Shown: positions 5,486 to 30,149 of the stretch, piece after piece
Numbering within the stretch: position 1 is the first letter of the stretch
Layout: each line of letters begins with the position of its first letter
Source: Escherichia coli
GTDB taxonomy: Bacteria > Pseudomonadota > Gammaproteobacteria > Enterobacterales > Enterobacteriaceae
Assembly: GCF_011045215.1 (NCBI RefSeq)
Contig: NZ_CP049201.1
DNA length: 64,000 nucleotides
Strand: one strand, 5' to 3'
Made by a program: the position numbers and the translations under genes
Notes under the pieces: generated by a model
The model's database searches: none
The model's input: the letters and a program-made list of their open reading frames with translations, nothing else
Told to the model about the DNA's origin: nothing

Positions 5486-5490
5486 TTGCT

Positions 5491-8400: not shown

Positions 8401-11400
8401 GCTCATCAGTCCGGATTTTTTCTCCTGTTTCAGGTGTGTTTCACGGTTGCTTTCTGTCAGCGTTCCGATACTCAGGTTATTTCCGGCAGCCAGGGAGACA
8501 CGGTTATCCCCGGCCACACTGCTGCCCGTGACGTTCAGATTATGTCCGGCACCGATACTGACCGTATCCCCGTTCAGTTCACTGCCCGTCATGGTCCGGC
8601 GGTCAGTGACATCATGCGTGGTAGTGGTGGTTTTCGATAACATCCCGCTGTTGCCGGTCACTTTATGGTATTCATCCAGCGAGCGGGTATTCTGTGCACC
8701 GGTCAGCGTCACGTCATGACCCGCCATCAGGGCCAGGCCTTTCTGAGCTGACAGCGATGCCGCCTGTGACGTCATATCCCGTCCGGCGGTCAGCGTGACA
8801 TCACCGTTACCGGCAAGTGTGCTGCCCGTATTCTGTGTGACGCCCTGCGACAGACGATTATTTTTATCCCAGGTAATATTGTCCTGCGCGGATGTGGTCA
8901 CCGTGGAAAGCGTCATATCCCTGCCGGCACTGAGTTGTGTCAGGCTGTCCTTACCCTGATTCACCACCGTTGCCGCCGTCAGATTCATATCCCGTCCGGC
9001 CTGCAGCACCAGTCTTCCCTGGTCGTTCTGCACATACACGCCGGCCACACTGTCGATACTGGTACGTTCAAAATGGTTCTGCCCGGCGTCGCGCTGTGCC
9101 GTACGGGTGGTGGTGGTCAGACTGATATCCCGTCCGGCCATCGCCAGCAGGCTGTCCGTGGCCTGCAGCAGCCCGCCGGTACTGTTAATATCCGTCCGGG
9201 CCGTCAGGCTGACATTTGCTCCCTGAATGGTGCCGGCCTGGTTGTGAATGTTTTCTGCACTGAGCTGCACGGCCTGCTTCCCGGCCAGTTTACCGCTGTT
9301 AAACAGGTCACCATCCAGCTTCATCACCATGTCCCTGCCGGCAATCAGCGCACCGGCACTGTTCACATCACCGGGTTTTACACGGGCATACACCTGAGGT
9401 ACCTGAACCGTCTGCGTGCTGCCGTCCGGCAGTGTCACCGTGGTGTTAACCAGCCAGACAATATCACCGGTCAGTAACGCCATCTGCTCAGCAGTCAGCG
9501 CCACACCTGGTGTCAGGTTGTATTGCTTACCAAATGCAATACCCGCATCCATTAACGCCTTAAACTGCTCTTCATCATTACTGTATCCGTCCAGGTACCG
9601 TTGCCCGGTCAGAGCGACAACCTGCTCACGAATCAGACGCTGTTCGTAAAAACCATCCCCCAGGCGTTTGAGCATGTTATCCCCGTTCTGAGAAAACGCC
9701 TTCTGCATGTAATCACTGCCCAGCCACGTCTTCTGGTTCGTAAAACGCGGGTCCGTTTCAACCAGATATGGCACATTCACTGCCGGATTTGTTTTAAACA
9801 GGCTGCTGTCCGGCAGACGGGTATCCGGCCCGGCAACATGGATACTGCCCTGAGGTGCGCTGACTTCAAACTGCTGCCCCGGCAACAGAATGACCGGTTC
9901 ACCGGCTGACACCACCGGGCGAAGCGGTATCCGGTCAGTAACGGCTACTGTCGCATCCACATTTCCGGTCAGTCCTGTCTGTACATCCGTTCCCTGTGGC
10001 TTCAGGGGAGAAAGCGTGACCTGGCTGCCCTGAACCTGTCCGTGGCTGGTGAGCTCTCCCGGCTTCAGCGTGATGGTCTGAATGACGGGGGGCGGCTCGT
10101 AAGGGGAAATTCTTTCCCCCTGCCTGTCATTTTTATTTTTTCTTTTTATCCGGTAATAATATGTGGATGTCCCTTTATCAGTAACATGGCGCTCTCCGCT
10201 GACACTGACGTTTTCCACATCACCGGCCTGCATATCCAGCAGACCACCTGCAACCACCTGGCTCTTGTCATTAAGCAGTTTGTCTGCCACAACCGTCATG
10301 CCGGCACCGGACAGTATTTTCCCCGGGTCGGAGTCTTTTACCCGGGTTTCCTCCACGGTACGGGTGTATTCATATTTTGTGAACCGGTCGTTGTTATGTC
10401 CGGTATCATCCGGCGTGTTCAGGTTCAGCAGTCCATCAGAGGAGTTGTTATCAATGAACACCCCCTCATCTTTTGCATTCCAGCGGACATCTGACCCGCG
10501 ATGCTGATACTCAGTCACCTTTTCCGTGGAGACCACCACGCGCTCCGTGGTGAAATGGTCATTGACGTTATTGATTTGCCCGGCACTCAGTGTCAGGGAA
10601 CCGGCGGCTTCAATCGTGGCACTGTGATTATTCAGTACACCGGCTTTCCCCGTGGCGGCGCCATTCGCATCCAGCATGCCACCGATATGCATATCACCTG
10701 CACTGTAAATCAGGCTGTGCGTCCGGTTATTCAGGGTCTGTACCCCCAGGTCCACACGCTCACGTCCGGCCAGCGTCGCCGCCACGCCATTTTCATCCAG
10801 ATTATTAAATGTGGCAGCGCTGACACCAACAGCATCGCCGTAGATTCGCCCGGTACCGGAATTCGTCAGGGTGTTCGCCTGAAGATGCGTATATTTCCCG
10901 TCAATCAGCCCACGGTTCAGCAGTGTGTCCGTCACGTTAAGCCAGGTCTGCCCGGCACTGATTTCACCTTTCTCTGTGTTTTCAAGGCGGATGCTGTTCA
11001 GGTCAAGCCGGCTGCCTGCCAGCAGGCTGCCGGTATTAGAGACATCGCCATTAACGGAAAGCGTAAGGTTTCCGTTTGCAATGGTCTGACCACTGTTACT
11101 GAACGCTGTGTTACTTTTCAGCGTTATATCGCCCGGCGAAAGCAGTTTCCCGTCACCACCAAGCTGACCGACATCCACAGAGACTGACTGCCCGGCCTTA
11201 ACCACGCCGTCACGGTTCGAAAACGCCAGCTGACGGCCACTGACAGACAATGTCGCGCCGGAAGAGAGCACGCCATCATTATTACTGAGCGTCCTGTCTG
11301 CCATAACCGTAAGCGCCCTGTCTGCCAGAATACTGCCCTCCTGGTTATCAAGGTCCTGCGTCGTGATGTGTATTGTCTGCGCTTCCAGCCCCTGGCCGGT

Positions 11401-14400
11401 ATTCTGCGTGTGGCGATTGATAAACTGCAGGGCGTTCAGCGTAATGGCAGAACCACTGCGAATCAGACCAGAGACGTTGTCCACAACGCCCCGTACACTG
11501 TCGAACAGAATGTCGCCCACAGACTGTATCTGTCCGTGGCTGTTCTGCAGGCCTCCCGTATGCAGACGGAGTTCACCTTCACTGACCAGCCGGCCACCCT
11601 CACGGTTATCCAGCGAGGTGGTGCTCAGGTCAGCTGTCGTTTTCGCCCCCACGGTCCCGCCCCGGTTATCCATTGCTCCGGTACTGACAGTCAGTTCCTG
11701 CAGGCTGTTCAGCGTACCCCCTCTGTTATCCAGCGTCCGGCCTGCGCTATTAATGCTGATGCCTTTCCCCTGAATAAGACCGGACTGATTGTTCAGCGCC
11801 AGACTGTTCCGGCCGGGCAGACCGGTCGCCACAATCTGACCATTCGCCACCACCTGACCGGATGTATTGTTAACCACGCCTGCAGTCAGGGACAGCGCAT
11901 CTCCCGACAAAAGCACACCGGCAGTGCTGTCCAGTGTGCCGGCATTCAGCGTCATCGGGCCCTGACTGATAACCCCGCCCCGGTCACCACTGTTACGGTT
12001 GCTCAGTGTGTCAGCACGGAGATTCAGTGTGGCACCGCTCTGTATCAGACCACCTGCATCATTGCTGATATCCGTCGAGGAAAGGGTCAGTGACTGCTGT
12101 GCCACCAGTCTGCCGCCCTGATTATCAGAGCGGGTGACATCCAGCCTGCTGTTACCGTTGCTGACCACCGTCCCCTGCTGATTTTCCAGCACATTCAGGT
12201 GCGCATTCAGGTCCCCGCCGGCGGCAAGCGTCCCTTCCTGATTACTGACATCGCCACCACTCAGCAACATATCCGTCCCGGCCTTCAGTGCGCCTTTCTG
12301 GTTCATCAGCGTACCTGACGATATCTGTAATGACGCCTGACTCCCCAGCACGCCCTGACGGTTATCGAGCGTTCCGGCGTTCAGGGTCATATCCTTCTGA
12401 CCCGCCATAAATCCCTGCTGGTTATTCAGCATACCGGCCCGTACTGTCAGGGTACCGGCGCTGCTGATACCACCCCGTGTTTTCGTGTTCCGGTTACTGA
12501 GAACCCCGTCCTGTACATCCAGCGTCATGTCACTGCCGGACTGAATCAGACCATCATCAGAGACCAGTTCGCTGCCTGACACAGACAGCGTTTTCTGTGA
12601 AAGCAGTCTGCCGGACGTATTATCCAGCGCACCATCCAGCGTCACGGACAGCCCGTCAGACACCACCGTACCCTGGTGGTTATTCAGACTCCCTGCCGAA
12701 ATATCCAGCCTGCCGGCGGACTCCATTCGTCCCTCAGTATTGCTGACAGCCTGCTGTGTTTTTATCCTGCCCGTTCCGGCAGCAGCTGAAATCAGTCCGT
12801 TGTCGTTATTCAGTGCCTGTGTATTAATCAGGATGTCACGGCTGGCAATCAGACTTCCCTGCTGGTTATCCACGGCGCCGGTTGTCCTCACCTGCAGACT
12901 ACCTGACTGCGCCGCCTGCACTTTCCCCCTGCGATTATCAAGGCTCAGTGCATCCAGGCGCACCGCGCCATTTGCCGCAAGCAGCCCTTCCCGGTTATCC
13001 ACACCTCCCGGCAGGTTCAGTGAAAAATCCCCTGTTCCCGTCTGAATCAGTTTACCCCTGTGGTTTGACAGGCTCTGTGCTGATATCTGCAGTGTGTCGG
13101 CATTTATCGTGCCGTCATTATTGCTGAACTGCCCGGCAGTCCGGGCGGAAAGCGTACCGGCACTCAGTTGCGCATTTTGCGTGAACAGATTTCCGCTGCC
13201 TGCATCCAGCTCAGTATGTTGTCCCTGTATCCGGCTGTTGCTTAAATCCAGCCCCTGCCCCTTCAGTTGCATGTCCCCACCGGACAGAACCTGTCCGTGT
13301 GCCGCCAGTTCGCCGGTGGTACTGACAGTCAGGTTGCCCGCTGCCGCCAGACGTCCGTCATCTTTCACCCCGGCGGCCAGCAGACTCCGCTCACCGCCGG
13401 TCAGACGCGCTGTCTGAATCCGGGTGTTGCGACGTGATGCCACAGAGCCTGTATGGGTGAATACACCATCACTCTGTATCTGCGTATCCTGCCCCGCATA
13501 AACAGAACCACTGTTATGCAGCTCCCGGGTTGTCACCAGATGCACATCCGTTTTCGCACTGATACTGCCACTGTTTTCAATTCGTCCGTCAGCCGTCAGG
13601 GTAACCGCCCCTGCCTGCGCACCAATATGACCGGCGTTACGAACACCCACCCCCGTTTCCGTACCGACAAGGCGAATTTTTCCGGCATACATTCCACCAA
13701 GGCTGGACACATCCAGCGCCACCTGTGGCTGCGAAGAGGCATCAGCGGCTTTTTTCTCAGTCTGCCCGTGTGCAATATCCACATTGTTACGTCCGGTGGT
13801 CACTTTCAGGTCCTGCGCCCAGATACCCGCATTAATCTTCACAGACCGGGCAATGATATCGGTATAATCCGTGCGCGAGGCATCCATCCCTTTGCCCGTA
13901 ATCTGAATCTCACCACGTTCAACACTGAATCCGGTCAGACTGCCGTTTTTCATCTGAGGCTGCCCCGTGGTCAGCGTGGCCCGGTTCGCATTAATAAAAC
14001 CGCACCCGTCGCAACTGATGCCGGCCGGGTTCGCAATCACCACCTGCGCCTTTTTCCCGGCAACCTCAACAAAACCGTTCAACTGGCTGGGATTGCGACT
14101 GTTCACTTCATTAAGAATGATTCGGGCCTCTCCCTTCGCCAGCCACGGGTTACCGGCAACCATGCCGCCCAGTTGGGTCTGCACATTTTTATGCGAGTTA
14201 TTCAGAATGACACCCTGATGACTGACATCAAACTGACTGTAAGTATTGTGCGATACCCCACCTGCAGAAGGTGTCTGGATATTGACCTGAGGAATGCCGC
14301 TGGCTGTCTGCGTAATCGTGGGCTGCTGATGCCCCGGTGCGCCATGGTCTGCGACAATGCCTGCAGCACTGACAGAATGCACCATCCCCGAGGCCAGCCA

Positions 14401-14565
14401 CAGGGAGAATGCAAGCGATGTGACACGGCAGATACGTTGCCTGCGTGGATATCCTGTACGGGAGGAGGGTGATGCACCGGCGCGACCGGAACGGGCAATA
14501 TCTGCCACCACCATCAGCATTCCCCGGGCTTTGTTAAAAATAATGCGGTAACAATTTTTGTTCAT
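5491..14565 (-). CDS. cdiA: CdiA contact-dependent inhibition exoprotein (TpsA/filamentous-haemagglutinin family), 3024 aa
   Basis: N-terminal extended signal peptide MNKNCYRIIFNKARGMLMVVADIA; TPS domain; long Gly/Thr/Asn/Ser-rich FHA-type repeats; VENN motif at codons 6247-6258; 251-aa variable C-terminal domain. Confidence 0.95.
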   Translation of the reverse strand: MNKNCYRIIFNKARGMLMVVADIARSGRAGASPSSRTGYPRRQRICRVTSLAFSLWLASGMVHSVSAAGIVADHGAPGHQQPTITQTASGIPQVNIQTPSAGGVSHNTYSQFDVSHQGVILNNSHKNVQTQLGGMVAGNPWLAKGEARIILNEVNSRNPSQLNGFVEVAGKKAQVVIANPAGISCDGCGFINANRATLTTGQPQMKNGSLTGFSVERGEIQITGKGMDASRTDYTDIIARSVKINAGIWAQDLKVTTGRNNVDIAHGQTEKKAADASSQPQVALDVSSLGGMYAGKIRLVGTETGVGVRNAGHIGAQAGAVTLTADGRIENSGSISAKTDVHLVTTRELHNSGSVYAGQDTQIQSDGVFTHTGSVASRRNTRIQTARLTGGERSLLAAGVKDDGRLAAAGNLTVSTTGELAAHGQVLSGGDMQLKGQGLDLSNSRIQGQHTELDAGSGNLFTQNAQLSAGTLSARTAGQFSNNDGTINADTLQISAQSLSNHRGKLIQTGTGDFSLNLPGGVDNREGLLAANGAVRLDALSLDNRRGKVQAAQSGSLQVRTTGAVDNQQGSLIASRDILINTQALNNDNGLISAAAGTGRIKTQQAVSNTEGRMESAGRLDISAGSLNNHQGTVVSDGLSVTLDGALDNTSGRLLSQKTLSVSGSELVSDDGLIQSGSDMTLDVQDGVLSNRNTKTRGGISSAGTLTVRAGMLNNQQGFMAGQKDMTLNAGTLDNRQGVLGSQASLQISSGTLMNQKGALKAGTDMLLSGGDVSNQEGTLAAGGDLNAHLNVLENQQGTVVSNGNSRLDVTRSDNQGGRLVAQQSLTLSSTDISNDAGGLIQSGATLNLRADTLSNRNSGDRGGVISQGPMTLNAGTLDSTAGVLLSGDALSLTAGVVNNTSGQVVANGQIVATGLPGRNSLALNNQSGLIQGKGISINSAGRTLDNRGGTLNSLQELTVSTGAMDNRGGTVGAKTTADLSTTSLDNREGGRLVSEGELRLHTGGLQNSHGQIQSVGDILFDSVRGVVDNVSGLIRSGSAITLNALQFINRHTQNTGQGLEAQTIHITTQDLDNQEGSILADRALTVMADRTLSNNDGVLSSGATLSVSGRQLAFSNRDGVVKAGQSVSVDVGQLGGDGKLLSPGDITLKSNTAFSNSGQTIANGNLTLSVNGDVSNTGSLLAGSRLDLNSIRLENTEKGEISAGQTWLNVTDTLLNRGLIDGKYTHLQANTLTNSGTGRIYGDAVGVSAATFNNLDENGVAATLAGRERVDLGVQTLNNRTHSLIYSAGDMHIGGMLDANGAATGKAGVLNNHSATIEAAGSLTLSAGQINNVNDHFTTERVVVSTEKVTEYQHRGSDVRWNAKDEGVFIDNNSSDGLLNLNTPDDTGHNNDRFTKYEYTRTVEETRVKDSDPGKILSGAGMTVVADKLLNDKSQVVAGGLLDMQAGDVENVSVSGERHVTDKGTSTYYYRIKRKNKNDRQGERISPYEPPPVIQTITLKPGELTSHGQVQGSQVTLSPLKPQGTDVQTGLTGNVDATVAVTDRIPLRPVVSAGEPVILLPGQQFEVSAPQGSIHVAGPDTRLPDSSLFKTNPAVNVPYLVETDPRFTNQKTWLGSDYMQKAFSQNGDNMLKRLGDGFYEQRLIREQVVALTGQRYLDGYSNDEEQFKALMDAGIAFGKQYNLTPGVALTAEQMALLTGDIVWLVNTTVTLPDGSTQTVQVPQVYARVKPGDVNSAGALIAGRDMVMKLDGDLFNSGKLAGKQAVQLSAENIHNQAGTIQGANVSLTARTDINSTGGLLQATDSLLAMAGRDISLTTTTRTAQRDAGQNHFERTSIDSVAGVYVQNDQGRLVLQAGRDMNLTAATVVNQGKDSLTQLSAGRDMTLSTVTTSAQDNITWDKNNRLSQGVTQNTGSTLAGNGDVTLTAGRDMTSQAASLSAQKGLALMAGHDVTLTGAQNTRSLDEYHKVTGNSGMLSKTTTTTHDVTDRRTMTGSELNGDTVSIGAGHNLNVTGSSVAGDNRVSLAAGNNLSIGTLTESNRETHLKQEKKSGLMSSGGVGFSVGSQSLKVTDTATDTTQKGSTVGSVHGDVSLQAGNRLTVNGSDLIAGRDMALSGKEVSITAATDRHVQTHTVEQKTSGLTLALSGTAGSALNTTVETVQAAKSAGNSRLEALQGVKAALSGAQAVQAGRLAEAQGNQKENNNTVGISLSYGSQSSKSEQQSEQTVAKGSTLTAGNNLSIQATGSGVKGVDGDLTIQGGQIKAGNNVLLQANRDVNLVSAENTSKLEGKNTSSGGSVGVGIGVGPGGPGFSLSASANQGKGSEKGNGTTHTETTVDAGNRLTIISGRDTTLTGAQAGGETVKVDAGRHLTLTSEQDSDRYDSKQQNASAGGSFTFGSMSGSASVNLSRDKMHSNYDSVQEQTGIFAGRGGFDVTTGQHTQLNGAVIASTATADKNRLDTGTLGFSDTENRADFKTEHQSAGLSTGGSVAGNFLGNMANNLLVGANHEGHADSTTQSAVSAGNITIRDTQSQKQDVADLNRDVAHANQTLSPIFDREKEQQRLQQAQLIGEIGNQVADIARTEGQIAGEKAKRDPAALNQARAELEAAGKPYTEQDVAQRAYNNGMAASGFGTGGKYQQAIQAATAAVQGLAGGNLSAALAGGAAPYIAEIIKQTTPDGAGRVAAHAVVNAALSLAQGKNALAGAAGAATGEVVGMIATQMYGKPVSELSETEKQTVSTLATVAAGLAGGLVGDSGASAVAGAQSGKTTVENNYLSSKQIDAWSAEMKSCQAKGGDCGGIIKKYEELSTAQQKQLISDCAASPATCQQKYGDVLTDSLAVKQAIDRALGEDIPIKMVYDLTATFAQQMQAEGVVATNKVSEALQEEYGLDEVQAGIVASAAASAFGGISKVKGNSQPKIEQILKPEKNWETARNKALDLVGNLGADSKPVIGRLEVSAGNGKVIGRQSSDGKVGWRVDYDPEKGTHINIWDYSQGKGPGKAVKQVIPFEGNEKSFETILKQLNR
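5494..6258 (-). other. VENN motif plus CdiA-CT polymorphic toxin domain (251 aa)
   Basis: gttgagaataac (VENN) encoded on the minus strand at 6247-6258; Cys-rich segment (SCQAKGGDCGG...DCAASPATCQQ) right after VENN; distinct C-terminal domain ...GWRVDYDPEKGTHINIWDYSQGKG... Confidence 0.8.
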
Positions 14566-14580
14566 TCTGATAAACCTGAC

Positions 14581-15108
14581 TTATCTCTCCGGCACATCCA
14601 CAGCAAGCGGGTGCTGCACACGCCACTGGCGCGCCTCTTCACGACTGACCTGTGCACCCCGGAAATTCATCACCCGCAACCCGGTCTGCTGCCCACGGTG
14701 GTACAGCGAACGCCAGCACAGACGGGGAAAAATATCCTGCCGGACAAGACGACTCATATCCGGGGTATGTCCAAAAGGGGCAATCCAGTCACAGACCCAC
14801 ATCCGGTCGCCGCTGTTCCAGTCCGACTGAGGCATGAGAATTGCCGGCTGCGTAAGATAACGCGCCTCTGCCTCCGGGCTGAGCCAGGCCTGGCTCATGA
14901 AGAAAACCGGTCGCCCCTGCTCTGTTGCCACCACATACTGTCGGTGCTTAATCACCGGCAGCAGCAGGTCCGGCAGGGTATGCAGTGGCGCATCACGATG
15001 CAGGGGGGAGTGCATCCACAACCAGACGGCCGCCCCCAGGACTTCCGCCTCATTGACCGGCTCACCGGAATACAGGGGACTCAGAACGTCATATTTCCCG
15101 TTACGCAT
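14581..15108 (-). CDS. cdiC: CdiC, HlyC/TAAT-family lysine acyltransferase
   Basis: 175 aa; WLWMHSPLHRD ... HRQYVV ... WNSGDRMWVCDWIAPFGH closely parallel the HlyC motifs (WLWASSPLHRN ... NQYVLL ... WTSGDRKWFIDWIAPFGD, recalled from memory); sits between cdiB and cdiA. Confidence 0.85.
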   Translation of the reverse strand: MRNGKYDVLSPLYSGEPVNEAEVLGAAVWLWMHSPLHRDAPLHTLPDLLLPVIKHRQYVVATEQGRPVFFMSQAWLSPEAEARYLTQPAILMPQSDWNSGDRMWVCDWIAPFGHTPDMSRLVRQDIFPRLCWRSLYHRGQQTGLRVMNFRGAQVSREEARQWRVQHPLAVDVPER

Positions 15109-15117
15109 GAAACTTTC

Positions 15118-16857
15118 TCAGAAATCCCGGAACAGATTAAAACCGGCTGTCACATCACTCGTCATAAAACCCGCCGGCTTTGAAAACGGACGACCGATGA
15201 AAACGTCATAATCCGTACTGAACAGTTGCCCCCTCAGCCCCACAACACCACCAGCCAGATGACGTCCCACCAGGTATTCACTGCCGGCTCCCCCCACCTC
15301 GCCGTAATCCATTCCCAGATATAACTCCTGCTCCGGCAGTGGCGTACGCCAGGCCAGGTCGTTGCGGATATACCAGCCGTTACTGGCATTCAGCGTTCGC
15401 TCCCCGTCAAAACCACGAACCGTCCAGCGGTTACCGATGGCAAACTGTTCCTGTGGGGTCAGCGGGGTATTGCTCAGCTGGCGCTGATACCGGAAGGAAT
15501 AACTGAAGGGCTGCCCTGCAAGGGTAAAGGGCAGATTAAAGGATGCATTCAACTGCAGGATCTTACTGAGCGCCGTTGCCTCACCGAACGTTTCTTCCGG
15601 CGCCGGCTGTGCACCAAACCAGCGGGTTCCCCGTTGCCAGCTGACACCAGCATCCAGTGTGGCCTGAGAAATATAATGACGGTGCTGCAGCCCAAGTCGC
15701 CAGGCCGCTGTCTGCCGGCGCTGCACCTGGATTTCCGTATCATTAATGTAGTTACGCGACCTGCGGGCCTGAACATCGTAGGTCAGCACCGTTTTCTGCG
15801 TCCCGTTACGGTGCAGTACCCGGCTCAGCTGCATACCCAGATTCTGACTCTCGCCACTGTACTGGTAATCCTCAACCGCACCAGCTACCGTCTGATGGTA
15901 ATCGTAATCACTGGCGGTGACGGAAAACTGCCAGTAGCCGAAAGGCACAGAGTAATGGGCCGTGTAGTTTTTACTGCCCTTACCCCCGTAATGTGGAAAA
16001 TTACGGGTGGCAGAAACATACAGCAGGTCACTCAGGGAAAAAGGATTATCCAGAGAAAATGTTATACCACCGAGATAACGCCCTGTGCTGCGGGTACCTG
16101 AATCATCAAGCGAAAACCCCAGTCGCCAGTATTTGTCCTGTTTGCGGGTAATAAGAATGTCACTTTCCCCTGGCTGCTCACCGGGTACAATTTCCATATC
16201 AGCCTGCACACCCGGCAGTCGTTGCATATTCTCCAGCCCCTGCTCAATGTCCCGTAAATCCAGCAGAGAACCTTCGTGTGCCGGGAATGAGGAATACAAC
16301 TGAATATAGTCATCACTGTCCGGTGTCAGACGCACATGTCGCACAACACCGGGAATAACAACCAGCCGGAGGATACCGCTTTTTAAATCCTGCGAAGGTG
16401 CCAGAACACGGGTGGTGACATAACCATGATCGACCAGACGGTTCTGCAATGTACTCATCAGCAGATTAATTCCTTTCGCCCCCAGGCAATGCCCGACCGC
16501 CCCGTTGGCGATTTTTTGTAAAGGCAGCCAGTGTGGTAACGCATCAGCCCCCTCCAGTTCCGTCTGTTTAATCTGAAAACAGGGCGTTTCAACAGGAAAA
16601 TTAATCTTACGGGCAAAAGAGCCAGGTGCAGAAAGGCGAACATCAGGGGCTGAAGGCGTCAGTTGTTGCTCAAGGGCTTCCTGACGCTGCTGCTGAATGA
16701 TAAATGCATTATCTCCGCTACGCCGGACATCCGCGGCCTGAAGAGATAAAGGCGATAATAAAACAGACATCAGTGTCAGTGACAGCAAGGACGGACAGCG
16801 CCGGAATACGCTTTGTTCCTCAGCCCTCTCGTTCCTGCAACATAATTTTCCAGTCAA
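15118..16857 (-). CDS. cdiB: CdiB outer-membrane TpsB transporter (ShlB/FhaC/HecB family)
   Basis: 579 aa; signal peptide; POTRA-like N-terminal region and beta-barrel C-terminus ending in an aromatic residue; immediately upstream of cdiC-cdiA. Confidence 0.9.
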
Positions 16858-17448
16858 ACGAAAAACCTTTTATTCATGTCATACCAACAATCACCAGCCT
16901 CCTGACGATACCTCCCACCATGTTTTGCGATGGTACGCTACCGCCCTTCCGGTATTTACCCGCATCAACCGGTACCAGAATGTTGAGTAATAAATTTGTC
17001 AACTCTGAATTGGTTTAATTTTGATCATTATAGAATGAAGATCTGAAAATTCTCAATATTGCAGACATATCGATCGATATGTAGTTATCACGTAGTTATT
17101 TATTCCAACTAATATCGCAAAAGCAGCATATTGCAAAACTTATAACCACGGAGAACAAAAAACGACAGAAAATTATTCCGTAAGATGCTTCAAATACAGC
17201 CAGTCAACACTGAAAAAAGTGATTTTTGATTAAAATCATTGAAGTTTATGCAGTACAGAATCTGAGCGGTTCTCAGCGAAAGTCAGAAGAAAGGGAGGTG
17301 AGGTAAAAGGCAGAAATCAGAGTGACAGGAATGCACAAAAAGCAAAAAAAAATCAACAAAACAATAAATTAACATACCCCGAAAAAGCATCCGCAACGTA
17401 CCGGGTAATAACAACAATATCGTGTAAAACAACATTGTTCCGGAAGTT

Positions 17449-17640
17449 ATGTCTGAAGATATCCCGTTACCCAAAGTCGGTCAGCGATACAGAGACGATC
17501 ATGGTGCGCTTGTCACCGTAACCAGTGTTGAGGAAACCCGGGTGGTATTTATGCGGGACGGCTATCCACATCCCTGTATGCGGCCAATGTACAACTTTCC
17601 AGGAAAATTCAAACCCGAACCCCGGGAAGAAACAGAATAA
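17449..17640 (+). CDS. Hypothetical small protein (63 aa)
   Basis: ORF with a compact protein-like sequence (MSEDIPLPKVGQRYRDDHG...); no recognised domain. Confidence 0.3.
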   Translation: MSEDIPLPKVGQRYRDDHGALVTVTSVEETRVVFMRDGYPHPCMRPMYNFPGKFKPEPREETE

Positions 17641-17692
17641 AACGAAATTCCTGCCGGCAATCACACTGCCTGATGGCAGCATAATCCACTTT

Positions 17693-17926
17693 TTAATTCT
17701 CATCCCCGAAGACAAGCCCAGAAAACCACTCCGGGTGTTCACTGTATGCCGTGTTCAGCGCATCCCAGGAAACGTTTATATAAAAGCTGTCCTGCAATCT
17801 GCGGGTAACAACTTCTGCCAGGCGATTCCGGTTATCCGCCAGTCCGGCATAACCTCTCTCTGCCAGCCACTCATTCAGTTCATGTTCCAGAGACAGATTG
17901 ATAATATCGTAATCGGACCTTGCCAT
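17693..17926 (-). CDS. Hypothetical small protein (77 aa)
   Basis: ORF downstream of and co-oriented with the 207-aa gene; amphipathic, protein-like composition. Confidence 0.35.
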   Translation of the reverse strand: MARSDYDIINLSLEHELNEWLAERGYAGLADNRNRLAEVVTRRLQDSFYINVSWDALNTAYSEHPEWFSGLVFGDEN

Positions 17927-18012
17927 TCCCGTTTCCTTAGCACATGTTTTCAGGCACGGGTAAAAGTATAAAGAATGTCATACTGCTGCCAGAGCCCCCC
18001 CTGATGGTCGTA

Positions 18013-18636
18013 TCAGAGATGGTATGCCGGCACTTTGCGGGTTGTTCCCGTCAGGTTATCGTGCACCTCCACATTCGTTGTCACTACCGGCATTCCGCTC
18101 TGTCTTAATCTCAGGACATCAGCCGCAATACGCTGACTGCCAGACCAGAACAGCCCGTCCAGTGCGGTCACCAGTAAACCTGCTTCCAGCGCATACTTCA
18201 GCCGTTCACGGGACGCTTTCACTTCCCGGGCAACCTGCTGATATGGCAATGATGTGTTTTCATTCCCAACCACGCGACGAATACGGTGAGACAGATGATA
18301 CCGGAATGTATCCGGCACACCCGAAAGGCTGGCCTTCAGGCTGTACACGCAGCCAAACCGTTTATCGTTGAACACCACATTTTTCTGGCTGATGCCCCAT
18401 TCTTCACGCAGCGCGGCAATCAGTTGTGGTGTCCGGGTAAGCAGCAAGCGAAAAGGCAGCTCAAAACTGGTGACGTAATCCACATTCAGCAGTGCAATAC
18501 GCAGCCGTTCTTCTGGCCCGGCCCCTGTCTGCCGGCACTCATCCAGAACATCCTGCCACTGCCGACGAAGACGTGGAGATTCATTCAGTTCTGTAAAACA
18601 GTATTTATTCACCAGATAATCAATTCGTGTACGCAT
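18013..18636 (-). CDS. Hypothetical protein (207 aa)
   Basis: ORF with balanced composition; no recognisable motif. Confidence 0.45.
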   Translation of the reverse strand: MRTRIDYLVNKYCFTELNESPRLRRQWQDVLDECRQTGAGPEERLRIALLNVDYVTSFELPFRLLLTRTPQLIAALREEWGISQKNVVFNDKRFGCVYSLKASLSGVPDTFRYHLSHRIRRVVGNENTSLPYQQVAREVKASRERLKYALEAGLLVTALDGLFWSGSQRIAADVLRLRQSGMPVVTTNVEVHDNLTGTTRKVPAYHL

Positions 18637-18895
18637 AATATAGATTCAGGAAACAATAAAAGCTGAATAAGCCCATATTTCATTGGGAAAACTGCAGTGT
18701 CAATACCAAAATGTTGCTCAAATCGTAGTAGAAGTATGGGATGTAGCGTTCAGGGTATTAAGAAACTTTTAGTTGACTACGATTGGTAAAATACATTAAT
18801 TTTTATTGCGGTTGCGTTTAATAGACTGCGGAGCGTGTTAACGCTCTAAATAAAAGTACTTAAGATGGCATAAATGTTACAAGACCAGGATAATT

Positions 18896-19291
18896 ATGGC
18901 TGAATTTACTGTAAGATCGAAGGATGAACTCGAAAAAGCTCAAAACAGCAGAGCTGAAATTATAATTATTGAAGGAGAGTTAGCAAATAAAATTAAAAAA
19001 GCAAAGGCTGTAACAAAAGTAAGTGGTGTTGTTATTGCTGCCATGATCGCAACTTGTGCTACTATTCCACTCACTGGTGGAGGTTCTGTTTTAGCTGTTA
19101 GTTCTTTAGCTGCATTATCCGGACTTGATATCGCTGTTATTATTGCTGCAGCATCCATTGGTATTGCTCTGGTTATTACTGTTTTCCGCGATTACGAAGA
19201 AATTGAATTTAGCAATGGAAAGATGATATTAAAGTTAAAACGTAAAAAAACTGAGTCTACAACTGACAAAAATGAGAAAAAGCAGAAGTGA
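18896..19291 (+). CDS. Hypothetical small membrane protein (131 aa, two predicted TM helices, Lys-rich tail)
   Basis: AT-rich ORF; hydrophobic segments VSGVVIAAMIATCATIPL and LDIAVIIAAASIGIALVITVF. Confidence 0.45.
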   Translation: MAEFTVRSKDELEKAQNSRAEIIIIEGELANKIKKAKAVTKVSGVVIAAMIATCATIPLTGGGSVLAVSSLAALSGLDIAVIIAAASIGIALVITVFRDYEEIEFSNGKMILKLKRKKTESTTDKNEKKQK

Positions 19292-19598
19292 AAGGTCTGT
19301 GCATCGGAATATGAACATATTTTAGTAATATTTTAATAAATCGTAAAGCCTCTATATTCAGAACCACGAAATAGAGGTGTTTTAAACTGCAACTGTTATC
19401 TCAATTTTTATCGAGGCGCCATTAAAACAAATACCCCGTTCTGCTGTTTTCTGATTATGCCATGAGATTAAAAACACTAATTTTTGATTGAATTGTATAT
19501 ATACATTGTAATACAAGATTTAAATACATATTTCTTCTTTTTTATCTGTAATCTATTATTATCAATAATCACATGAACAATATCAGAGGCAACACATT

Positions 19599-20372
19599 AT
19601 GAATAAAGCTGAAGTTCTGGAAAAAGGTTATTGGATTGAAATCAGTATTGATGCATATGCACAAAAAGTTAAGGGTATATCACGAGATGACTACCCACCA
19701 TTACGTTGTATCTCATGCGAGAAACCTGTCCATGATAGCGGATTAGTCACTCCCAATCCTGATTATAGCCCCAGATTCTCTCATTCCGCTTCACCAGAAA
19801 ATAAAGAGTTCTGTCCCCTAAGCGCAAGATCTCAACGTTTTTCTGGTTTTTCAGGTAATGAACGCTCTGCTTCAGCAGAAATTGCAGTATCTCGCCGAAA
19901 TCAATTCATGCAATTTGATAACCTCTATCGGGCCTGGGTTGTTTGTAGAGCATTAAGGGGAGGTGAAGGGAAGCTTGATCAAAAATCATTCATTCGGATG
20001 GTCAGGATCGCGGATAGTTTTGGGATCTGGCATTATAGCTATATGCCTGACTGGGGAATCCCTCTTATGCTAATGTTAATGGATAACCACCCGACACCAA
20101 ATGGTAAATCAACTTTTTTCTATTCATTAAAAAAAGAACGTGTTCGAAAAGGTGTAAAATGGCAAGATCTAAATGTCAGACTTGAAGCACATTGGGTAAA
20201 TGGTGGTAACCGCATAGTTCCAAATAAAGATAAAAAAGCTTCATTCTTGCTCACCATTCCATTTGCTAAGTCTGTTATTGATGAAATACTGAGTAAAGAA
20301 AATCTGTCATGGTGCTCAAAAAACTCTCTACCAATATTGCATTCTTTTAGCATTAGAGCTTTAACCACTTAA
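19599..20372 (+). CDS. Hypothetical protein (257 aa) with an N-terminal CxxC pair
   Basis: AT-rich ORF with purine-rich sequence just upstream; CISCEKPVHD motif; no recognised family. Confidence 0.45.
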   Translation: MNKAEVLEKGYWIEISIDAYAQKVKGISRDDYPPLRCISCEKPVHDSGLVTPNPDYSPRFSHSASPENKEFCPLSARSQRFSGFSGNERSASAEIAVSRRNQFMQFDNLYRAWVVCRALRGGEGKLDQKSFIRMVRIADSFGIWHYSYMPDWGIPLMLMLMDNHPTPNGKSTFFYSLKKERVRKGVKWQDLNVRLEAHWVNGGNRIVPNKDKKASFLLTIPFAKSVIDEILSKENLSWCSKNSLPILHSFSIRALTT

Positions 20373-20662: not shown

Positions 20663-21166
20663 TCAAAAACCGCTGTAGCCAAAGTTACGCTGGCCTGATG
20701 CTTTAGTGTCGAGCTTCGTCAAATAATCCAGACGTACCAATAAGCGCTGGTACTGCTCAGGGAAATCAGGATCGTTAATATCCAGGATGTAACGCCCATT
20801 AGTAGGGAAATGAACTAATCCCTGGTGATCTTCCAGTTCCAACCCTAAGGCACTGTACCAGGCTCCGGTAATTAACCCTCTCAGGGTGTCAGAGCGCTCA
20901 TAGTCTCCCAGGTGGTAATAGGCGTCTTTGTTAAACAACAGGCAGACGTGATAATGACATTTAAAGGACTGCGTATATTCTTTCGCCCAGATAATACAAA
21001 CCGACGTTGCGTAGGTGCGTTTGCCTTGTTGTTTTTTACGGTGTTGATCTGCATTAATTTTCGCATTCAGCGAGTTACGGAAACGAGATATTTCTCCGGG
21101 GGTCAGGTTAGGAAAACAGGTAATGGTATCCCCGTTGTCAATCACAGGAGGGTAATGGAGATCCAC
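20663..21166 (-). CDS. YfjJ/YagK-like (inovirus Gp2-type) prophage protein
   Basis: 167 aa; resembles the CP4-57 YfjJ family and the paralogue at 21739-22302. Confidence 0.5.
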   Translation of the reverse strand: MDLHYPPVIDNGDTITCFPNLTPGEISRFRNSLNAKINADQHRKKQQGKRTYATSVCIIWAKEYTQSFKCHYHVCLLFNKDAYYHLGDYERSDTLRGLITGAWYSALGLELEDHQGLVHFPTNGRYILDINDPDFPEQYQRLLVRLDYLTKLDTKASGQRNFGYSGF

Positions 21167-21280
21167 CCGTATTGCTGTTATTCTGGAAGTATTTTTAATA
21201 TTCGTATTGATAGTTCTCAGAGATATATCACACTCTAGATATTTTAATTAAGTATCAGTTCGATATCGGCATATTGTACA

Positions 21281-21644
21281 CTACCTCTGGTAGATGATGA
21301 GATCAGATACAGGGATCAACTGACGGTGAGCGCAGTCCCCACATTTTATCCAGGGCTTACTGCATATTCCCAACAGCCATTCGTTAGCCAGGTAGACGAA
21401 TACCCTTTCCGCTGGTTTTGCTTTCCCATCGAAGGGCCCATACATCATCACGCCCGCGAAACAGTCGACAAAATAACGCAACTTTCTCATCCGTGGATAA
21501 TACGAAAACGCACTGCACAGGGCTCTGCGGTTTACGTCGCCATTCAATCCCATGAGCTTCAAGTAATGAGACCAGCCGGGTATTTTCTGCCCGCAGTACT
21601 GCTAGTTCATCGCTGTCAGATTTATAAACCATATGCGTTATCAC
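21281..21644 (-). pseudogene. Fragmented gene remnant (two overlapping minus-strand frames)
   Basis: ORFs 21281-21562 and 21384-21644 lie in different frames and overlap; consistent with a frameshifted relic. Confidence 0.3.
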
Positions 21645-21738
21645 TTGTACCTGTCTCCCGGCGGCACCACGACTGAAATTCGTGTGAAGGCAAATCCACG
21701 CGATAACTTACGATAGTTCGGACATAAGCCCCCATAAT

Positions 21739-22302
21739 TCAGTTATGTCGTGGTCGGCCGCGGTTACTTTTTTCGGGAAGCCTGCTACGCCCCAGAATAA
21801 TACCGTGTTCTTTCTGATCCTGTTTCGCCAGATAGCTAAGGGCGTAACGTAAGTCGTCTACCGCAGATTTATCACTATAGTGAATTACATGATCGATACG
21901 CACCGGGTATTTATCTTTAGCCCGGCACAGGTGAAAATAACCCTCCCCTTCCGTGATCCGCCTCCAGATATCTCCCAGTTGCCTGGATATCTGATAAGAG
22001 TTCTTGTGACGTTGTCCATCCAGATAGCCGATAAAATGAATATGAAGCCCTTTGTCTGGTGTATATTCCATTACCCAGTAATATCCCGCCAACATCGTCT
22101 GGGTTTCGCTAAGTAAGCGGTACATTTCCATACACATACTGTGCTTACAGGAAAGACCAAAACTGGGCGTGTCTTTCCTGTAAGCAAAATCAATTCTGAA
22201 AGGTAACAGTTTAGAAAAACGTTGAAACAGACCTTCCATGTGTTCATTCACATCTTTCAGAATCGCGAAATTCATTTCGTAATTGGGATTGGCATTATAC
22301 AT
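21739..22302 (-). CDS. YfjJ/YagK-like (inovirus Gp2-type) prophage protein
   Basis: 187 aa; family resemblance to CP4-57 YfjJ; prophage gene context. Confidence 0.55.
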   Translation of the reverse strand: MYNANPNYEMNFAILKDVNEHMEGLFQRFSKLLPFRIDFAYRKDTPSFGLSCKHSMCMEMYRLLSETQTMLAGYYWVMEYTPDKGLHIHFIGYLDGQRHKNSYQISRQLGDIWRRITEGEGYFHLCRAKDKYPVRIDHVIHYSDKSAVDDLRYALSYLAKQDQKEHGIILGRSRLPEKSNRGRPRHN

Positions 22303-23240
22303 TTTATAGTCCTTACTTTATAAAACTGACAGGAAAGTGGAATTACATAAATACTGAGAGTACAGAAACGCCGTACCGCGGCATTAATAAAAGAGGTAAC
22401 CAGCAGCACAGACAACCTGATAAAACTGTTTCGTATTACCTCATTACAGTAATAGGGTAATGATTCAGAATACAGTAAGACTTTCTTAAACTGAGGACCA
22501 GAACGAATTACAATAAAAAACACACCTCATATAATTGAGTTTAAGAAAGCACCATTCAATTACTTACAGGATATAATCTGATCTTCACAAAAGTCAGTAC
22601 CGGGTAGCCACAGACAACATCGCTATTAATATTGCCGTACCATTAAGTAAAAACAGAGACTCTGCAGAGAGAGCCTACAGATATTTAACCTCACAATAAG
22701 AAGATTATTTCATACAGAAAATATTATATTTACCTATGCTTATAAACTGTAACGGAGCCATAACATACTCTAATAGTGTTCCGGTACGTAACCAGTGTTA
22801 AGTGCGTACAAGACAACATAACATAACAGATTTATGTTCCCAACATTACACCACATAATTCACCATACAGCTTCCCCCCATATGCTTCACTGCGTAGTGT
22901 ATGGAGATATATGTATTACACACATACAGAATACTTAGCATAGAGAGGAGTGACATTACGATAAAAGAGACAACATAACAGATCACATAACTCCCACTAA
23001 TAATACTAATTAACCTAAATTATTTATTGAACACGAAAACAATGAAGGCCCCACCTCACCTCAGACTAAAGCCGACAATATCCTGAGCAACACTCTATCC
23101 AATAGTAAATAGTGGTTACACCAGTTATATTTACTGACTGACCTGTACCAGAGTTTTCTAATACAACGCTGACATGGTAAAGACATTAGTCTCCTCCGCA
23201 AGTAGCAGAGGAGACTATATGTACTCAACGATTAAGTCGT

Positions 23241-24692
23241 TCAGAGGTCAAAGTTAGGTGCGACACACAACGTTTTTCCCTCAATAACCGGTACAACTCT
23301 GTTTTGTTCATACAGTAAATCCAGTAACCAGTTGATTTTATCCTTTTTCCGGAAACGGTTCGGGCCACGCTGTAAAATGTCATTTTTTTTCATACAGAGG
23401 ATCCCCTTCTCAATGCAATAGCTTTTTATCCAGTTGAAAAGTTCAAGCTCCTCTGGAATGAGTCGCACAGGTACGGTCAGGGCGGAGTTGTCAAAAGTTA
23501 ACGGATTAGACAACCGCACATACTCATTACCGTACCATATTGCTAATTCTCTCGCCATTTCTGCAGTGTAAGGGGAAATCTCCCCCTCTTCACCGCTCGA
23601 ATGGTAAATAAGTCCTGCCAGTCTTGCCATATACTCTGCATTTTTAGCAGCATATTCCCGGCAATGTCTTAAAGGCCCCAATCCCCCCAGCTTCGATTCC
23701 ACATCATTGTAATAATCCGTCCAGATTCTGGCAGCCTGAGGAGAAAAGTGAAGGCAACGTCGTTCACCACTCATCGCCAGACTTTCATCAATAAGCTCAT
23801 TGATCCTCTCTTCAAACAAATCCTGATACTGTGATGAATAATTATCTCCGGTTATTATCCTTGTCCCCTGCGTTGATGTTGGTTGACACATCAAAAACCT
23901 TGCATGATGTCCTGACGTTTTCACAAGTTCTTTTTTTCGCGTACAAAAACCTTTGTGGTAAACATCAGGCTGAATCATCACCGATATCGTCAGTCTTGGC
24001 TCCTTCAAATTAATTCCGGGAGATGATTTCCTGTCGATGAAAAGAGAACCTCCATCCCACAAAGTGTTAATAATTCCCAGTTTACTCATGGCCCGGCTGT
24101 CAAAAATTACCCCCCCTTCACTGGATACAAGAGCAAAAGAGCGATTGCTATCAGAGTAATATTTTAACATTCCCTCTATCGTTGTCTCATTAAAAATTGT
24201 TCGACGTATCTGCGGCGGAACAGGAGATTTATTCAGATGCGTTTCAAGCTCTGATTCTGTTGCCTTGTAATCTTTACCGGCACGAATCTCTTTATGAAAT
24301 TTTGATTCCAGCGCTTTTTGTTTTTGCTCCCATATTTCCTTTTCTGTACTGTAATTCTCAACCAGTTTCGCGTATTCTTCCGCCAGGGCTTCATCCCTGA
24401 GATAAAATGCTTTCATAAACACTTTATCCACGGTCGTTTTCCTTTCACCGGAATCAGCCAGAATCAGAGAGTAAAGATTAACAGGCCCATGTAAATTTCC
24501 AGGTCTGCACACGTCAATCTGATTCTGACAGGCAATTGAGATCGCTGTTAATGCGGATGTTGCCACCATAGCCAAAGGTGCCTGTGTATTTTTTTGAGTT
24601 TCAATTATTGCATTTCTCACCAGCGGTGGTAGTGCATATATCGGATAAGGATTTTCTGGTGCAAGTAAGCACATAAAAGCCTCTCTTTTCAT
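23241..24692 (-). CDS. DUF3987-domain protein (YfjI-like, primase C-terminal-like)
   Basis: 483 aa; sits downstream of alpA as yfjI does in CP4-57. Confidence 0.6.
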   Translation of the reverse strand: MKREAFMCLLAPENPYPIYALPPLVRNAIIETQKNTQAPLAMVATSALTAISIACQNQIDVCRPGNLHGPVNLYSLILADSGERKTTVDKVFMKAFYLRDEALAEEYAKLVENYSTEKEIWEQKQKALESKFHKEIRAGKDYKATESELETHLNKSPVPPQIRRTIFNETTIEGMLKYYSDSNRSFALVSSEGGVIFDSRAMSKLGIINTLWDGGSLFIDRKSSPGINLKEPRLTISVMIQPDVYHKGFCTRKKELVKTSGHHARFLMCQPTSTQGTRIITGDNYSSQYQDLFEERINELIDESLAMSGERRCLHFSPQAARIWTDYYNDVESKLGGLGPLRHCREYAAKNAEYMARLAGLIYHSSGEEGEISPYTAEMARELAIWYGNEYVRLSNPLTFDNSALTVPVRLIPEELELFNWIKSYCIEKGILCMKKNDILQRGPNRFRKKDKINWLLDLLYEQNRVVPVIEGKTLCVAPNFDL

Positions 24693-24892
24693 TAATGGGT
24701 TAGTAAAATAGCAGCAACTCCCGCTACAATAGCGAAAATAGCTGCTATTCAGACCTGATGCTCTGAGAAATACTGAGCATTTGTAGATCTGATGTTTAAT
24801 AAACCGATAAGGTTAATTCAGTGCAGACTGTATTATTTACCACGAAATATCATTCATATTTCTCATTCTTAATACCTCCAGAAATTATTTCA

Positions 24893-25090
24893 CTAATACC
24901 TTTCCCCCGGTCTTTTCCCTTTCTCCAGAACCATAGTGTAAATATTAACGGCCCCACGTAAATTTCCGGGGCTGCATACGTCAACCTGATTCTGACAGGC
25001 AATTGACATCGCTGTTAATACTGACATTGCAACCAGAGTCAGAGGTACTTGTTTATTGTATTGAGCTTTAATTATTGCCTTCCCTATCAT
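24893..25090 (-). pseudogene. Duplicated 5' fragment of the DUF3987 gene
   Basis: 65-aa ORF (…TLVAMSVLTAMSIACQNQVDVCSPGNLRGAVNIY…) paralogous to the N-terminus of the 483-aa protein (…LAMVATSALTAISIACQNQIDVCRPGNLHGPVNLY…); flanking DNA is also duplicated. Confidence 0.5.
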
Positions 25091-25316
25091 TGATGGTCAC
25101 GTATATACTGAATACGGCATATCCGGTTTGATGTAAGACATAAATGCTTCCTTTTTCGTAATACGTTTCGGTTATAGCAGCAATTACCGCTACAATAGCG
25201 ACAATAGCTGCTCTTTCAACAATGAATGCTGGAAATTCTGTTTATCAATTAAACTTCTGGCTAAATTGTTCTTATGCTTCTTTTTCCTCCTGAGGTGATC
25301 ACGTGATGACAAAAAC

Positions 25317-25625
25317 TTATCTGCTCATGGTCATATCTGAAGAAAGCGTATGTCGCACTTCGTCATTAACACCTTTGACTGCTGATCTGGCAGGTACAGT
25401 ATGTAAAGTAAGCCATTCGTCAATAGCTGATGAACGCCAGCCCACAGAACCACTACCAAGACGTACCGGCCTGGGGAAGGTTGCATCGTAGTATTTCGAT
25501 AACGGATTCATTTTTTCGTAAATTGTCGAACGAGATATACCTAACAATTGGCTCAGTTCAGGCATCCGTAAGATGCGTGAAGGAGTCCAGCAGTATCCGG
25601 ATTGATCTGGCATTTTATCCCCCAT
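25317..25625 (-). CDS. alpA: AlpA-family phage transcriptional regulator (HTH)
   Basis: ...RILRMPELSQLLGISRSTIYEKM... is the AlpA-type helix-turn-helix signature; start codon uncertain (25625, 25613 or 25697). Confidence 0.7.
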   Translation of the reverse strand: MGDKMPDQSGYCWTPSRILRMPELSQLLGISRSTIYEKMNPLSKYYDATFPRPVRLGSGSVGWRSSAIDEWLTLHTVPARSAVKGVNDEVRHTLSSDMTMSR

Positions 25626-25822
25626 AGTGTGGTGAACTGTCGTTACAGTTTGTATTCCCCGGGTAAATTTGTCTGCGTAAAAAAATGGGCTGAGCAAAAA
25701 GACAATAAATAATTAAAAATCAATACGATAGAAAACAACAGCATTATTGTTATTTTACTTTCTCCTTATCACTGTCGATTCTCATTATCATTCATTGGTA
25801 AAAAAACAGCAAAAGAGGCCCT

Positions 25823-26585
25823 GGTAATGACTCCAGTCAGTAGTACAGTGTTTTCGATAAATGAACCAATGGCTTTTCGTGAATTTCCAGGGAGCGTGAA
25901 AAGCAAATCGTTTTCCGGGCTGGTCGTTTGATGTGAGTACGAAGTGTCAGATTGTTGCGCTCAATGCGCCGGGTAAATATCTTGCCGACAAGATGCTTAT
26001 CCTGTGGCATTTCTCTGGTATAACTGCTCCGGTTGTCTCTGGTTATCATGCCTGTGGAGAATGGCTTCAGGAGTTCCGGCAACTCACGACATGTTTCATC
26101 AGTGCGAGGACCAAAAGTGTAAGCCAGCACACCTCCAGATTTGGTGTTATACGCATACCAGTGCCACTGCTGACGAGCTTTGTTTTCGACAAAACTCCAT
26201 TGTTCATCAAGTTCGCAGATAAGCGCCACATCGGCACTGACGTCTGGAGATGTGGTTACTTTGCGTGGTGAGCGTTTTATAAAGTGAGAATGACGGTGTT
26301 GATATCCACCTTCAGCGTTCTGGAGCTATCGCGAACCCGACTCCGTTATGAACCATTTCAACAATTTGCTCTTTGATGCCTGGTTTTCGGGTTTCGTAGA
26401 TGTAATTCAGTTGAAATACACACATTTGCAGGATTAGCACTGGAAACGCTCATGATCTGAGGTGCTGTGATCATAATGGTACACTTTATAGGAATTACAG
26501 CGGGGAGAATGTACTGTAACTGTTGCCATATGGTCTCCAGATACCAATAGAATATCACATTAATCTATCGTCAGAAGGCATCACC
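25823..26585 (-). mobile_element. IS1-family insertion sequence, divergent and degenerate (763 bp)
   Basis: Terminal sequence ggtaatgactcca at 25823 and gcatcacc at 26578-26585 match the IS1 inverted repeats; the 130-aa ORF 25837-26229 resembles the InsB C-terminus (MALICELDEQW...RIERHNL...); the InsA-like frame is interrupted. Confidence 0.6.
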
Positions 26586-29933: not shown

Positions 29934-30149
29934 ACGCTAATTCCCGTCACTCTGGTATGCCATCCAGTATGCCATTAGTCTCTCGCTTCACTAAGAATAC
30001 ATTAGATAATATCGGACAACAAAAAGTGTAATACATTGTTTATAATGAAATTATATAACACCCCTGGATTAAGTCAGATTTATTTCAGGCGGTCCCCCTC
30101 ACCGCCATATTTAAATAAATATCCTCCGGCATAGCCGGAGGTTTTTCAA

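Follow-up and report, generated by a model that had tools for sequence, protein, structure and literature searches.

Five open reading frames (ORFs) lie at positions 17449–20372 of a 64-kb stretch of Escherichia coli DNA (64,000 nucleotides, hereafter the window), between cdiB and the YfjJ-like genes of an integrase-borne island. We find that this block is made of two unrelated modules, and is not one toxin-antitoxin (TA) or abortive-infection (Abi) unit. Module A, to the left, is a 1.2-kb cassette with the genes for proteins of 63, 77 and 207 amino acids (aa), which extends from 17444 to 18637 as delimited by blastn homology. Module B, to the right, is an AT-rich cargo segment with the genes for proteins of 131 and 257 aa (p131 and p257), and extends from 18638, where the homology has ended and the GC content changes, to about 20660 (up to 20662). 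We consider it probable, though far from assured, that this composite joins a regulator cassette to two independent accessory genes acting in mobile-element or phage conflict. The block is thus mostly ordinary island content, a catalogued regulator cassette and two orphan accessory genes. Most deserving of further attention is the p257 family, which is spread across Proteobacteria, with no Pfam family and no solved structural relative. Being found beside restriction, ubiquitin-like, HEC-03 and TA genes, and in a slot allelic with Zorya, p257 is a candidate new defence or plasmid-conflict gene.

Two modules of different frequency and composition

The division into two modules is based on genome frequencies, base composition and breakpoints. 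Among 5426 complete E. coli genomes, Module A was present in 2291 (42%), at up to five places per genome, whereas the right 1.9 kb, representing Module B, was present in 33, near-complete in 26, and in one context throughout. G+C content at third codon positions (GC3) was 0.47 for the 63-aa gene and 0.54 for both the 77-aa and 207-aa genes, compared with 0.22 and 0.29 for the 131-aa and 257-aa genes. Overall GC content fell from 0.52–0.54 across 17.8–18.6 kb to 0.28–0.41 across 18.6–20.6 kb. When strain EC2, O157:H7 and strains in which the cassette is linked to a type VI secretion system (T6SS) were compared by blastn, homology covered 17444–18637 and ended there. A single operon or a single system for the five ORFs is ruled out by these frequencies, breakpoints and composition, together with synteny. 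An earlier, sequence-only reading of this DNA had placed the five ORFs, the AT-rich right half and both flanks as the ORF list, GC content and annotation place them, and the foreign origin that it proposed for the right half agrees with the composition measured here. Its treatment of the five ORFs as one block does not hold.

Each breakpoint, 17444 and 18637, is only a few bases away from a start codon, that of the 63-aa gene and that of the 207-aa gene respectively, and the outer transcription units of the cassette are convergent. Both genes therefore have their promoters in DNA that is not the same from one island variant to another.

All five ORFs are genuine E. coli genomic-island genes and not chance ORFs, because exact copies of the five proteins are all present in public E. 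coli records, and because of the ratios of nonsynonymous to synonymous substitution rates (dN/dS) found in pairwise comparisons with other alleles. These ratios were 0.10–0.15 for the 63-aa gene (17449–17640, plus strand), 0.15–0.20 for the 207-aa gene (18013–18636, minus strand) and 0.18–0.37 for the 257-aa gene (19599–20372, plus strand). For the 77-aa gene (17693–17926, minus strand), dN/dS was about 0.09 against the more divergent alleles, and 0.47–1.16 against three closer alleles that differ by few substitutions. Substitutions in the 131-aa gene (18896–19291, plus strand) were too few for a judgement. Repeats in the 16.8–21.3 kb interval were merely short two- or three-copy matches of chance size, and a simple scan of the same interval counted promoters and terminators at the level expected from shuffled sequence. 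An Rfam-type scan returned no RNA family within the block.

Defence models were taken from PADLOC-DB 2.0.0 (2023) with a cut at E≤1, a scan that the sequence-only reading had proposed. None of its families was matched by any of the five proteins, nor did these match a defence, TA or nuclease family in the libraries scanned.

p257, a solitary zinc-ribbon protein

p257 is a basic protein (pI 9.5) with a helical core, and its structure model is compact (pLDDT 84). An N-terminal zinc ribbon formed by C37, C40, H62 and C72 is followed by an alpha/beta domain, and no effector domain could be recognised. The CxxC pair already noticed in the sequence corresponds to C37-x2-C40, which is invariant across the family; among 39 diverse members, C37, C40 and H62 never vary, and C72 hardly does. 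No match to p257 was found in Pfam (even at E≤10), NCBIfam, PADLOC or PHROGs, and a profile search of the family against PDB sequences returned nothing; no solved relative of the fold was obtained. Close relatives form 25 clusters, from Enterobacterales, Orbus and one Neisseriaceae bacterium, and a profile search extended the family to 98 representative clusters (50% identity) across Proteobacteria.

A CoiA label is carried by one depositor record and one AFDB entry of the family. When 39 relatives were searched against Pfam, two matched DUF7830 weakly, one matched CoiA_N (E 0.013), and none matched the CoiA nuclease domain (PF06054). Longer relatives add disordered tails rich in P, S and A, and no effector domains. 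The hypothesis of a PD-(D/E)xK or CoiA nuclease was rejected on the empty PDB profile search, the weak DUF7830 and CoiA_N matches, and the disordered nature of the tails.

The neighbours of p257 homologues are of several kinds. In Hafnia, the homologue is placed between PADLOC HEC-03A/B and an E1-E2/Bub-type system with a GajB-like helicase. One Enterobacter homologue has hsdRMS on one side and two HNH type-IV-like restriction genes with SymE on the other; another, in a CP4-like island, follows CbeA/CbtA and precedes an orphan CdiA-CT/CdiI pair. The Xenorhabdus homologue is near HicAB. That of the Neisseriaceae bacterium belongs to a conjugative element, near ParE and TraH/TraG, and in a Providencia phage-plasmid the gene is flanked by Phd/RelE and HicA, with RepL nearby. 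On plasmids, neighbours include RepE/ParB (Erwinia), ParA/ParB-KorB (Serratia) and topoisomerase IA, SSB and relaxosome genes (Pseudomonas); six of the nine plasmid matches are on conjugative plasmids. In an all-versus-all comparison of these neighbours, no recurrent partner appeared, and the gene was always solitary.

The Hafnia paralvei region (OX460963.1, 3938–15074) is a compact defence island. It comprises an integrase, HEC-03A/B-like genes with an RNA ligase, and the p257 homologue, together with a ubiquitin-like BubE/ThiF/Multi_ubiq system and an 1136-aa M78-UvrD-PDDEXK protein.

By tblastn, the 131-aa and 257-aa genes were found together in E. coli and E. albertii only, and outside Escherichia each homologue occurs without the other, which rules out a conserved two-gene system. 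Because they are paired in Escherichia only, and because the 307-bp AT-rich spacer between them contains a terminator-like hairpin, we take p131 and p257 to be independent and their genes to be transcribed separately. Module B would then consist of two accessory genes of foreign, AT-rich origin, each inserted singly and independently of the other, and p257 may act alone, binding nucleic acid as a sensor or effector.

For p257, the chief alternative is a maintenance or regulatory role: it would be a DNA-binding factor of mobile elements, serving plasmid or integrative-conjugative-element stability, partition or establishment, and its presence in defence islands would reflect a shared gathering of genes in accessory regions. 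The replication, partition, relaxosome and transfer genes found next to it on plasmids and conjugative elements, the share of conjugative plasmids among its plasmid matches, and the basic charge, zinc ribbon and helical core of the protein all suit such a factor, as does the absence of p257 from the 50,697 phage records searched. However, on the chromosomes of Hafnia, Enterobacter and E. coli the copies are surrounded by restriction or defence genes, and genes for replication or partition are missing from the vicinity; the position of p257 relative to backbone genes also varies between elements. We regard this role as a serious possibility, if on the whole a rather doubtful one.

p131, a small membrane protein

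The transmembrane segments and Lys-rich tail that had been noticed in p131 were borne out. Hydrophobic stretches at about residues 42–62 and 64–98 (windows 38–100) give two to three transmembrane segments, and the Lys-rich tail follows. p131 matches PHROG 25580 (E 4e-37), and nothing in Pfam, NCBIfam or PADLOC. A 97%-identical copy is labelled 'PM1101 family membrane protein' in RefSeq; we did not reproduce this label, as no PM1101-type family was returned for p131 by NCBIfam release 20.0 at E≤1. Distant homologues are few (41–59% identity) and all solitary. The one in a Serratia prophage occupies an accessory-gene slot, with the lysis cassette on one side and the head genes on the other, while the remaining ones adjoin an integrase or sit on short contigs, none of them near a p257 relative. 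A phage origin of p131 and p257 was rejected, neither having a match in the 50,697 deposited phage genomes.

At 19244–19251, a 1-nt indel after a run of seven A residues leads to Lys-rich tails of two kinds among strains, in proteins of 131 aa and 142 aa. This could be slipped-strand variation, or the mark of an unconstrained tail. The terminator-like hairpin of the spacer (19348–19378, plus strand) begins 57 nt past the 131-aa stop codon and is followed by UGUUUU; its fold reaches −11.2 kcal/mol with a z score of −2.4, but it went uncalled in the simple terminator scan and so counts as weak evidence.

We suggest that p131 acts alone, possibly as a membrane factor of the superinfection-exclusion or abortive type. 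A role of each of p131 and p257 in mobile-element or phage conflict is the most likely one, because of the neighbourhood and the slot allelism with Zorya I described below, which are its only basis.

Module A, a putative regulator cassette

The 207-aa protein (p207) is basic (pI 9.6) and belongs to the NCBIfam family ECs1377_fam (NF052300), with 316.2 bits against a cut-off of 190, over positions 1–190 of the 190 of the profile. This family comes without a described function, and no functional data were found in the literature on ECs1377, PM1101 and Z-numbers. The structure model of p207 matches winged-helix proteins, mainly regulators, and its fold resembles regulators of the ArsR, MarR and Stf76 types; no sequence-family match was obtained for the N-terminal half. 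We predict that p207 binds DNA as a winged-helix protein and that it probably contains two such units.

The 63-aa protein matches Pfam DUF4222 (PF13973; E 3.5e-23), residues 6–57 covering positions 1–52 of the 53 of the model, and also matches PHROG 1343 and PHROG 285. By these matches it is a short form of the RgdR regulator family. RgdR (ECs1581, DUF4222) is a prophage-encoded activator of the type III secretion system of the enterocyte effacement locus (LEE) in enterohaemorrhagic E. coli O157:H7 (PMC3378721; PMC10877973). Forms of 63 aa, called 'RgdR truncates', have been described on OI-43, OI-48 and SpLE1, in a report that gives no activity test for them (PMC3378721). The present ORF has this same length and is a complete DUF4222, whereas RgdR has 99 aa. 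The RGD motif and full 99-aa length, which are tied to type III secretion activation, are both missing: RDD is read at residues 15–17, where RGD would be expected, as judged from the sequence itself and not from an alignment to RgdR. The earlier statement that no family could be assigned to any of the five proteins was thus wrong for the 63-aa protein and for p207, and possibly for p131, if the RefSeq label is right.

Searches of Pfam, NCBIfam, PADLOC and PDB gave no match for the 77-aa protein, which is acidic (pI 4.4). Its cluster has 670 members, those listed being from E. coli, E. albertii and E. marmotae, plus one Salmonella record.

p207 homologues were collected from one genome per species, which gave 80 loci with 58–94% identity. 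Among these, E. albertii was the sole non-E. coli holder of the 63-aa and 77-aa genes. The p207 homologue stood without them in the genomes of 79 other species, and it had no conserved small neighbour. A TA-like 207/77 pair, as the sequence-only reading had suggested, is ruled out by this solitary state and by the winged-helix fold. A fragment 93% identical to the E. coli p207 was also found in Macrococcus carouselicus, on a 422-bp contig with a coverage of 0.83; it is almost certainly assembly contamination.

Because RgdR is a characterised regulator and p207 has a winged-helix fold, we propose that Module A proteins act as island-encoded transcription regulators. The cassette often neighbours T6SS-1 or contact-dependent growth inhibition (CDI) loci. 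It is a candidate for the regulation of those weapons, and may be linked to contact-dependent weapons.

A stronger form of this link would make the cassette, and chiefly p207, a dedicated regulator of the adjacent weapon locus, namely T6SS-1 in many strains and cdiBCAI here. The cassette-tssB junction is intact in 191 of the 5426 complete genomes (DSM 103246 and 190 others), and tssB there shares its strand with the 207-aa and 77-aa genes. In many other E. coli strains, the cassette is flanked on that side by T6SS or cdiB remnants and by insertion sequence (IS) elements. The Kosakonia and Citrobacter homologues are also directly upstream of tssB and co-oriented with it. The first four loci had in fact suggested that the 207-aa gene is an obligate T6SS leader gene, an idea downgraded to a rival when the 80-locus scan found tssB nearby in five. 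In that scan, T6SS genes were within 8 kb of the p207 homologue in five loci and a cdiB-like gene in two, but 73 loci had no T6SS or two-partner secretion gene within 8 kb, and most neighbours were housekeeping genes (LysR, alaC, btsS, fadI, mlaA, yfdC). Moreover, the promoter side of the 207-aa gene faces the variable DNA, away from the secretion locus. ECs1377, the type member of the family, is presumably on SpLE1 in the Sakai genome, which we also counted against a dedicated weapon regulator. We find such a regulator unlikely.

The island and its swappable slot

The block sits in an integrase-borne island with a P4/CP4-57-like backbone, where it is part of a recombination-shuffled cargo region. 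This is shown by the breakpoints at 17444 and 18637, by a Zorya swap in strain UTAK-22 and by a full TOTE gene in strain EC2. In UTAK-22, the flanks 14000–17243 and 21735–26000 are conserved at 95–97% (blastn), and the segment 17244–21734, bounded by the region upstream of cdiB and by the full-length Gp2/YfjJ gene, is swapped for zorA1-zorB1-zorC-zorD (type I Zorya) and an IS66 fragment. EC2 has a full 786-aa TOTE conflict system primase gene at the position where the window has a fragment.

This fragment is among the genes in decay that follow the cargo on its right (20663–21676, minus strand), which, from RefSeq annotation of syntenic strains, consist of a truncated Gp2/YfjJ-like ORF (20663–21166, minus strand) and an archaeo-eukaryotic primase fragment of the TOTE conflict-system gene (about 21281–21676, minus strand). 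The primase fragment, in which 21384–21644 matches PADLOC PrimPol (E 2.4e-16), is placed between two Gp2/YfjJ-like genes, the second being the full-length inovirus-Gp2/YfjJ-like gene of the right flank (21739–22302). The backbone continues with YfjI (23241–24692) and the integrase (28731–29933), and also comprises an IS1 remnant and an AlpA-like gene, the latter known from syntenic annotation. A hypothetical 605-aa ORF (26726–28543) adjoins the integrase. It has a GC content of 0.32 and hydrophobic segments, was kept in every island variant examined, and matched nothing in NCBIfam or PADLOC.

The left neighbour of the block is cdiB (15118–16857, minus strand), with cdiC and a 3024-aa cdiA beyond. 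The cdiB-cdiC-cdiA locus spans 5111–16857; an HlyC-type lysine acyltransferase gene (14581–15108) lies between cdiB and cdiA, and a 124-aa ORF (5111–5485) immediately 3' of cdiA may be an immunity gene. The same block, in other strains, adjoins the T6SS-1 cluster, from tssB onwards, in place of cdi, and in O157:H7 and EC2 merely a cdiB fragment is left on the cdi side of the cassette.

Beside the integrase, a 15-nt remnant of a tRNA-Ser 3' end is present at 30093–30107 (tccccctcaccgcca); ARAGORN found no tRNA gene in the whole window. The Hfq-binding small RNA STnc490 (146 bits) was found at 30691–30814, and its counterpart in EC2 is annotated as RtT sRNA. Past ycdU, a long minus-strand cluster (31994–47439) has the appearance of a biosynthetic cluster of lipid or polyene type; the annotation of a syntenic strain gives it an acyl carrier protein (ACP) S-malonyltransferase, ketoacyl synthases, an ABC transporter, a LolA-like protein and an acyl carrier protein.

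Weighing the composite reading

Several observations weigh against a conflict role for Module B and a regulator role for Module A. Both roles are inferred from neighbourhood, family and fold. p257 homologues beside replication and partition genes fit a maintenance or regulatory role equally well. C37, C40 and H62 alone are invariant in the wider p257 family, and therefore no catalytic site can be named. p257 has no match in PADLOC-DB 2.0.0, and when ten of its remote relatives were run against PADLOC, two chance-level REase_II scores were obtained (E 0.01 and 0.022) and nothing else. As for p131, its tail is frameshift-variable and not conserved, and a comparison with one allele gave four nonsynonymous and no synonymous substitutions, leaving constraint unproven. 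Finally, the 77-aa and 207-aa genes are pseudogenes in strain DSM 103246.

The defence-type cargo proposed by the sequence-only reading stands in part. The variable slot, holding type I Zorya in UTAK-22, makes it a reasonable lead for the two AT-rich genes, but no PADLOC match came to support it. A bolder version of the conflict role would have p257 found a previously undescribed family of single-gene mobile-element conflict proteins that restrict phages or incoming plasmids, the zinc ribbon recognising nucleic acid and the new alpha/beta domain supplying an effector activity, with p131 as a separate exclusion factor. We offer this tentatively, and think it fairly unlikely as stated.

It could also be that the block is inert in this host, as decaying passenger DNA of a degraded island. 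The island is indeed scarred by the truncated Gp2 gene, the primase fragment and the IS1 remnant, and both the DSM 103246 pseudogenes and the frameshift variation of the p131 tail go in this direction. However, all five ORFs are intact here, and dN/dS is low for the 63-aa, 207-aa and 257-aa genes, as it is for the 77-aa gene against divergent alleles. In addition, p207 and p257 keep 45–75% identity across genera, with many invariant residues. We hold an inert block to be improbable.

That the block, or its 207/77 and 131/257 pairs, would be a TA or Abi system with the small membrane protein or p207 as toxin is very improbable: an acidic small protein does stand beside a basic one, a small membrane protein is present and the slot holds Zorya in another strain, but no TA or defence model is matched, p207 has a winged-helix fold and is alone in 79 species, p131 and p257 are never paired outside Escherichia, and the gaps are 87 bp for 207/77 and 307 bp, with the hairpin, for 131/257.

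Comparison with known systems

PD-lambda-4B, from the two-gene PD-lambda-4 anti-phage system, has an N-terminal CoiA-like zinc ribbon of about 65 residues, followed by sequence of unknown function (PMC9519451). p257 likewise opens with a zinc ribbon, which is a resemblance and not a membership: no PADLOC match was found for p257 (the PD-lambda-4B model being assumed to be in the library), and the AAA ATPase gene of the system, PD-lambda-4A, is absent within 17–21 kb. Unlike CoiA, p257 has no CoiA nuclease domain.

p131 is like prophage 'moron' membrane proteins and superinfection-exclusion proteins in being small, membrane-embedded, AT-rich in its gene and solitary, with a homologue between lysis and head genes, although it has no sequence relation to any named exclusion protein.

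The region as a whole can be compared with the E. coli defence-island hotspots, variable defence-gene slots of integrative islands (PMC10121019). The cargo of the window differs from that of known slots, as it matches no described defence system in PADLOC-DB 2.0.0. The arrangement is nevertheless the same: the integrase and backbone are common to the strains, and the cargo varies, with Zorya I or a full TOTE primase elsewhere.

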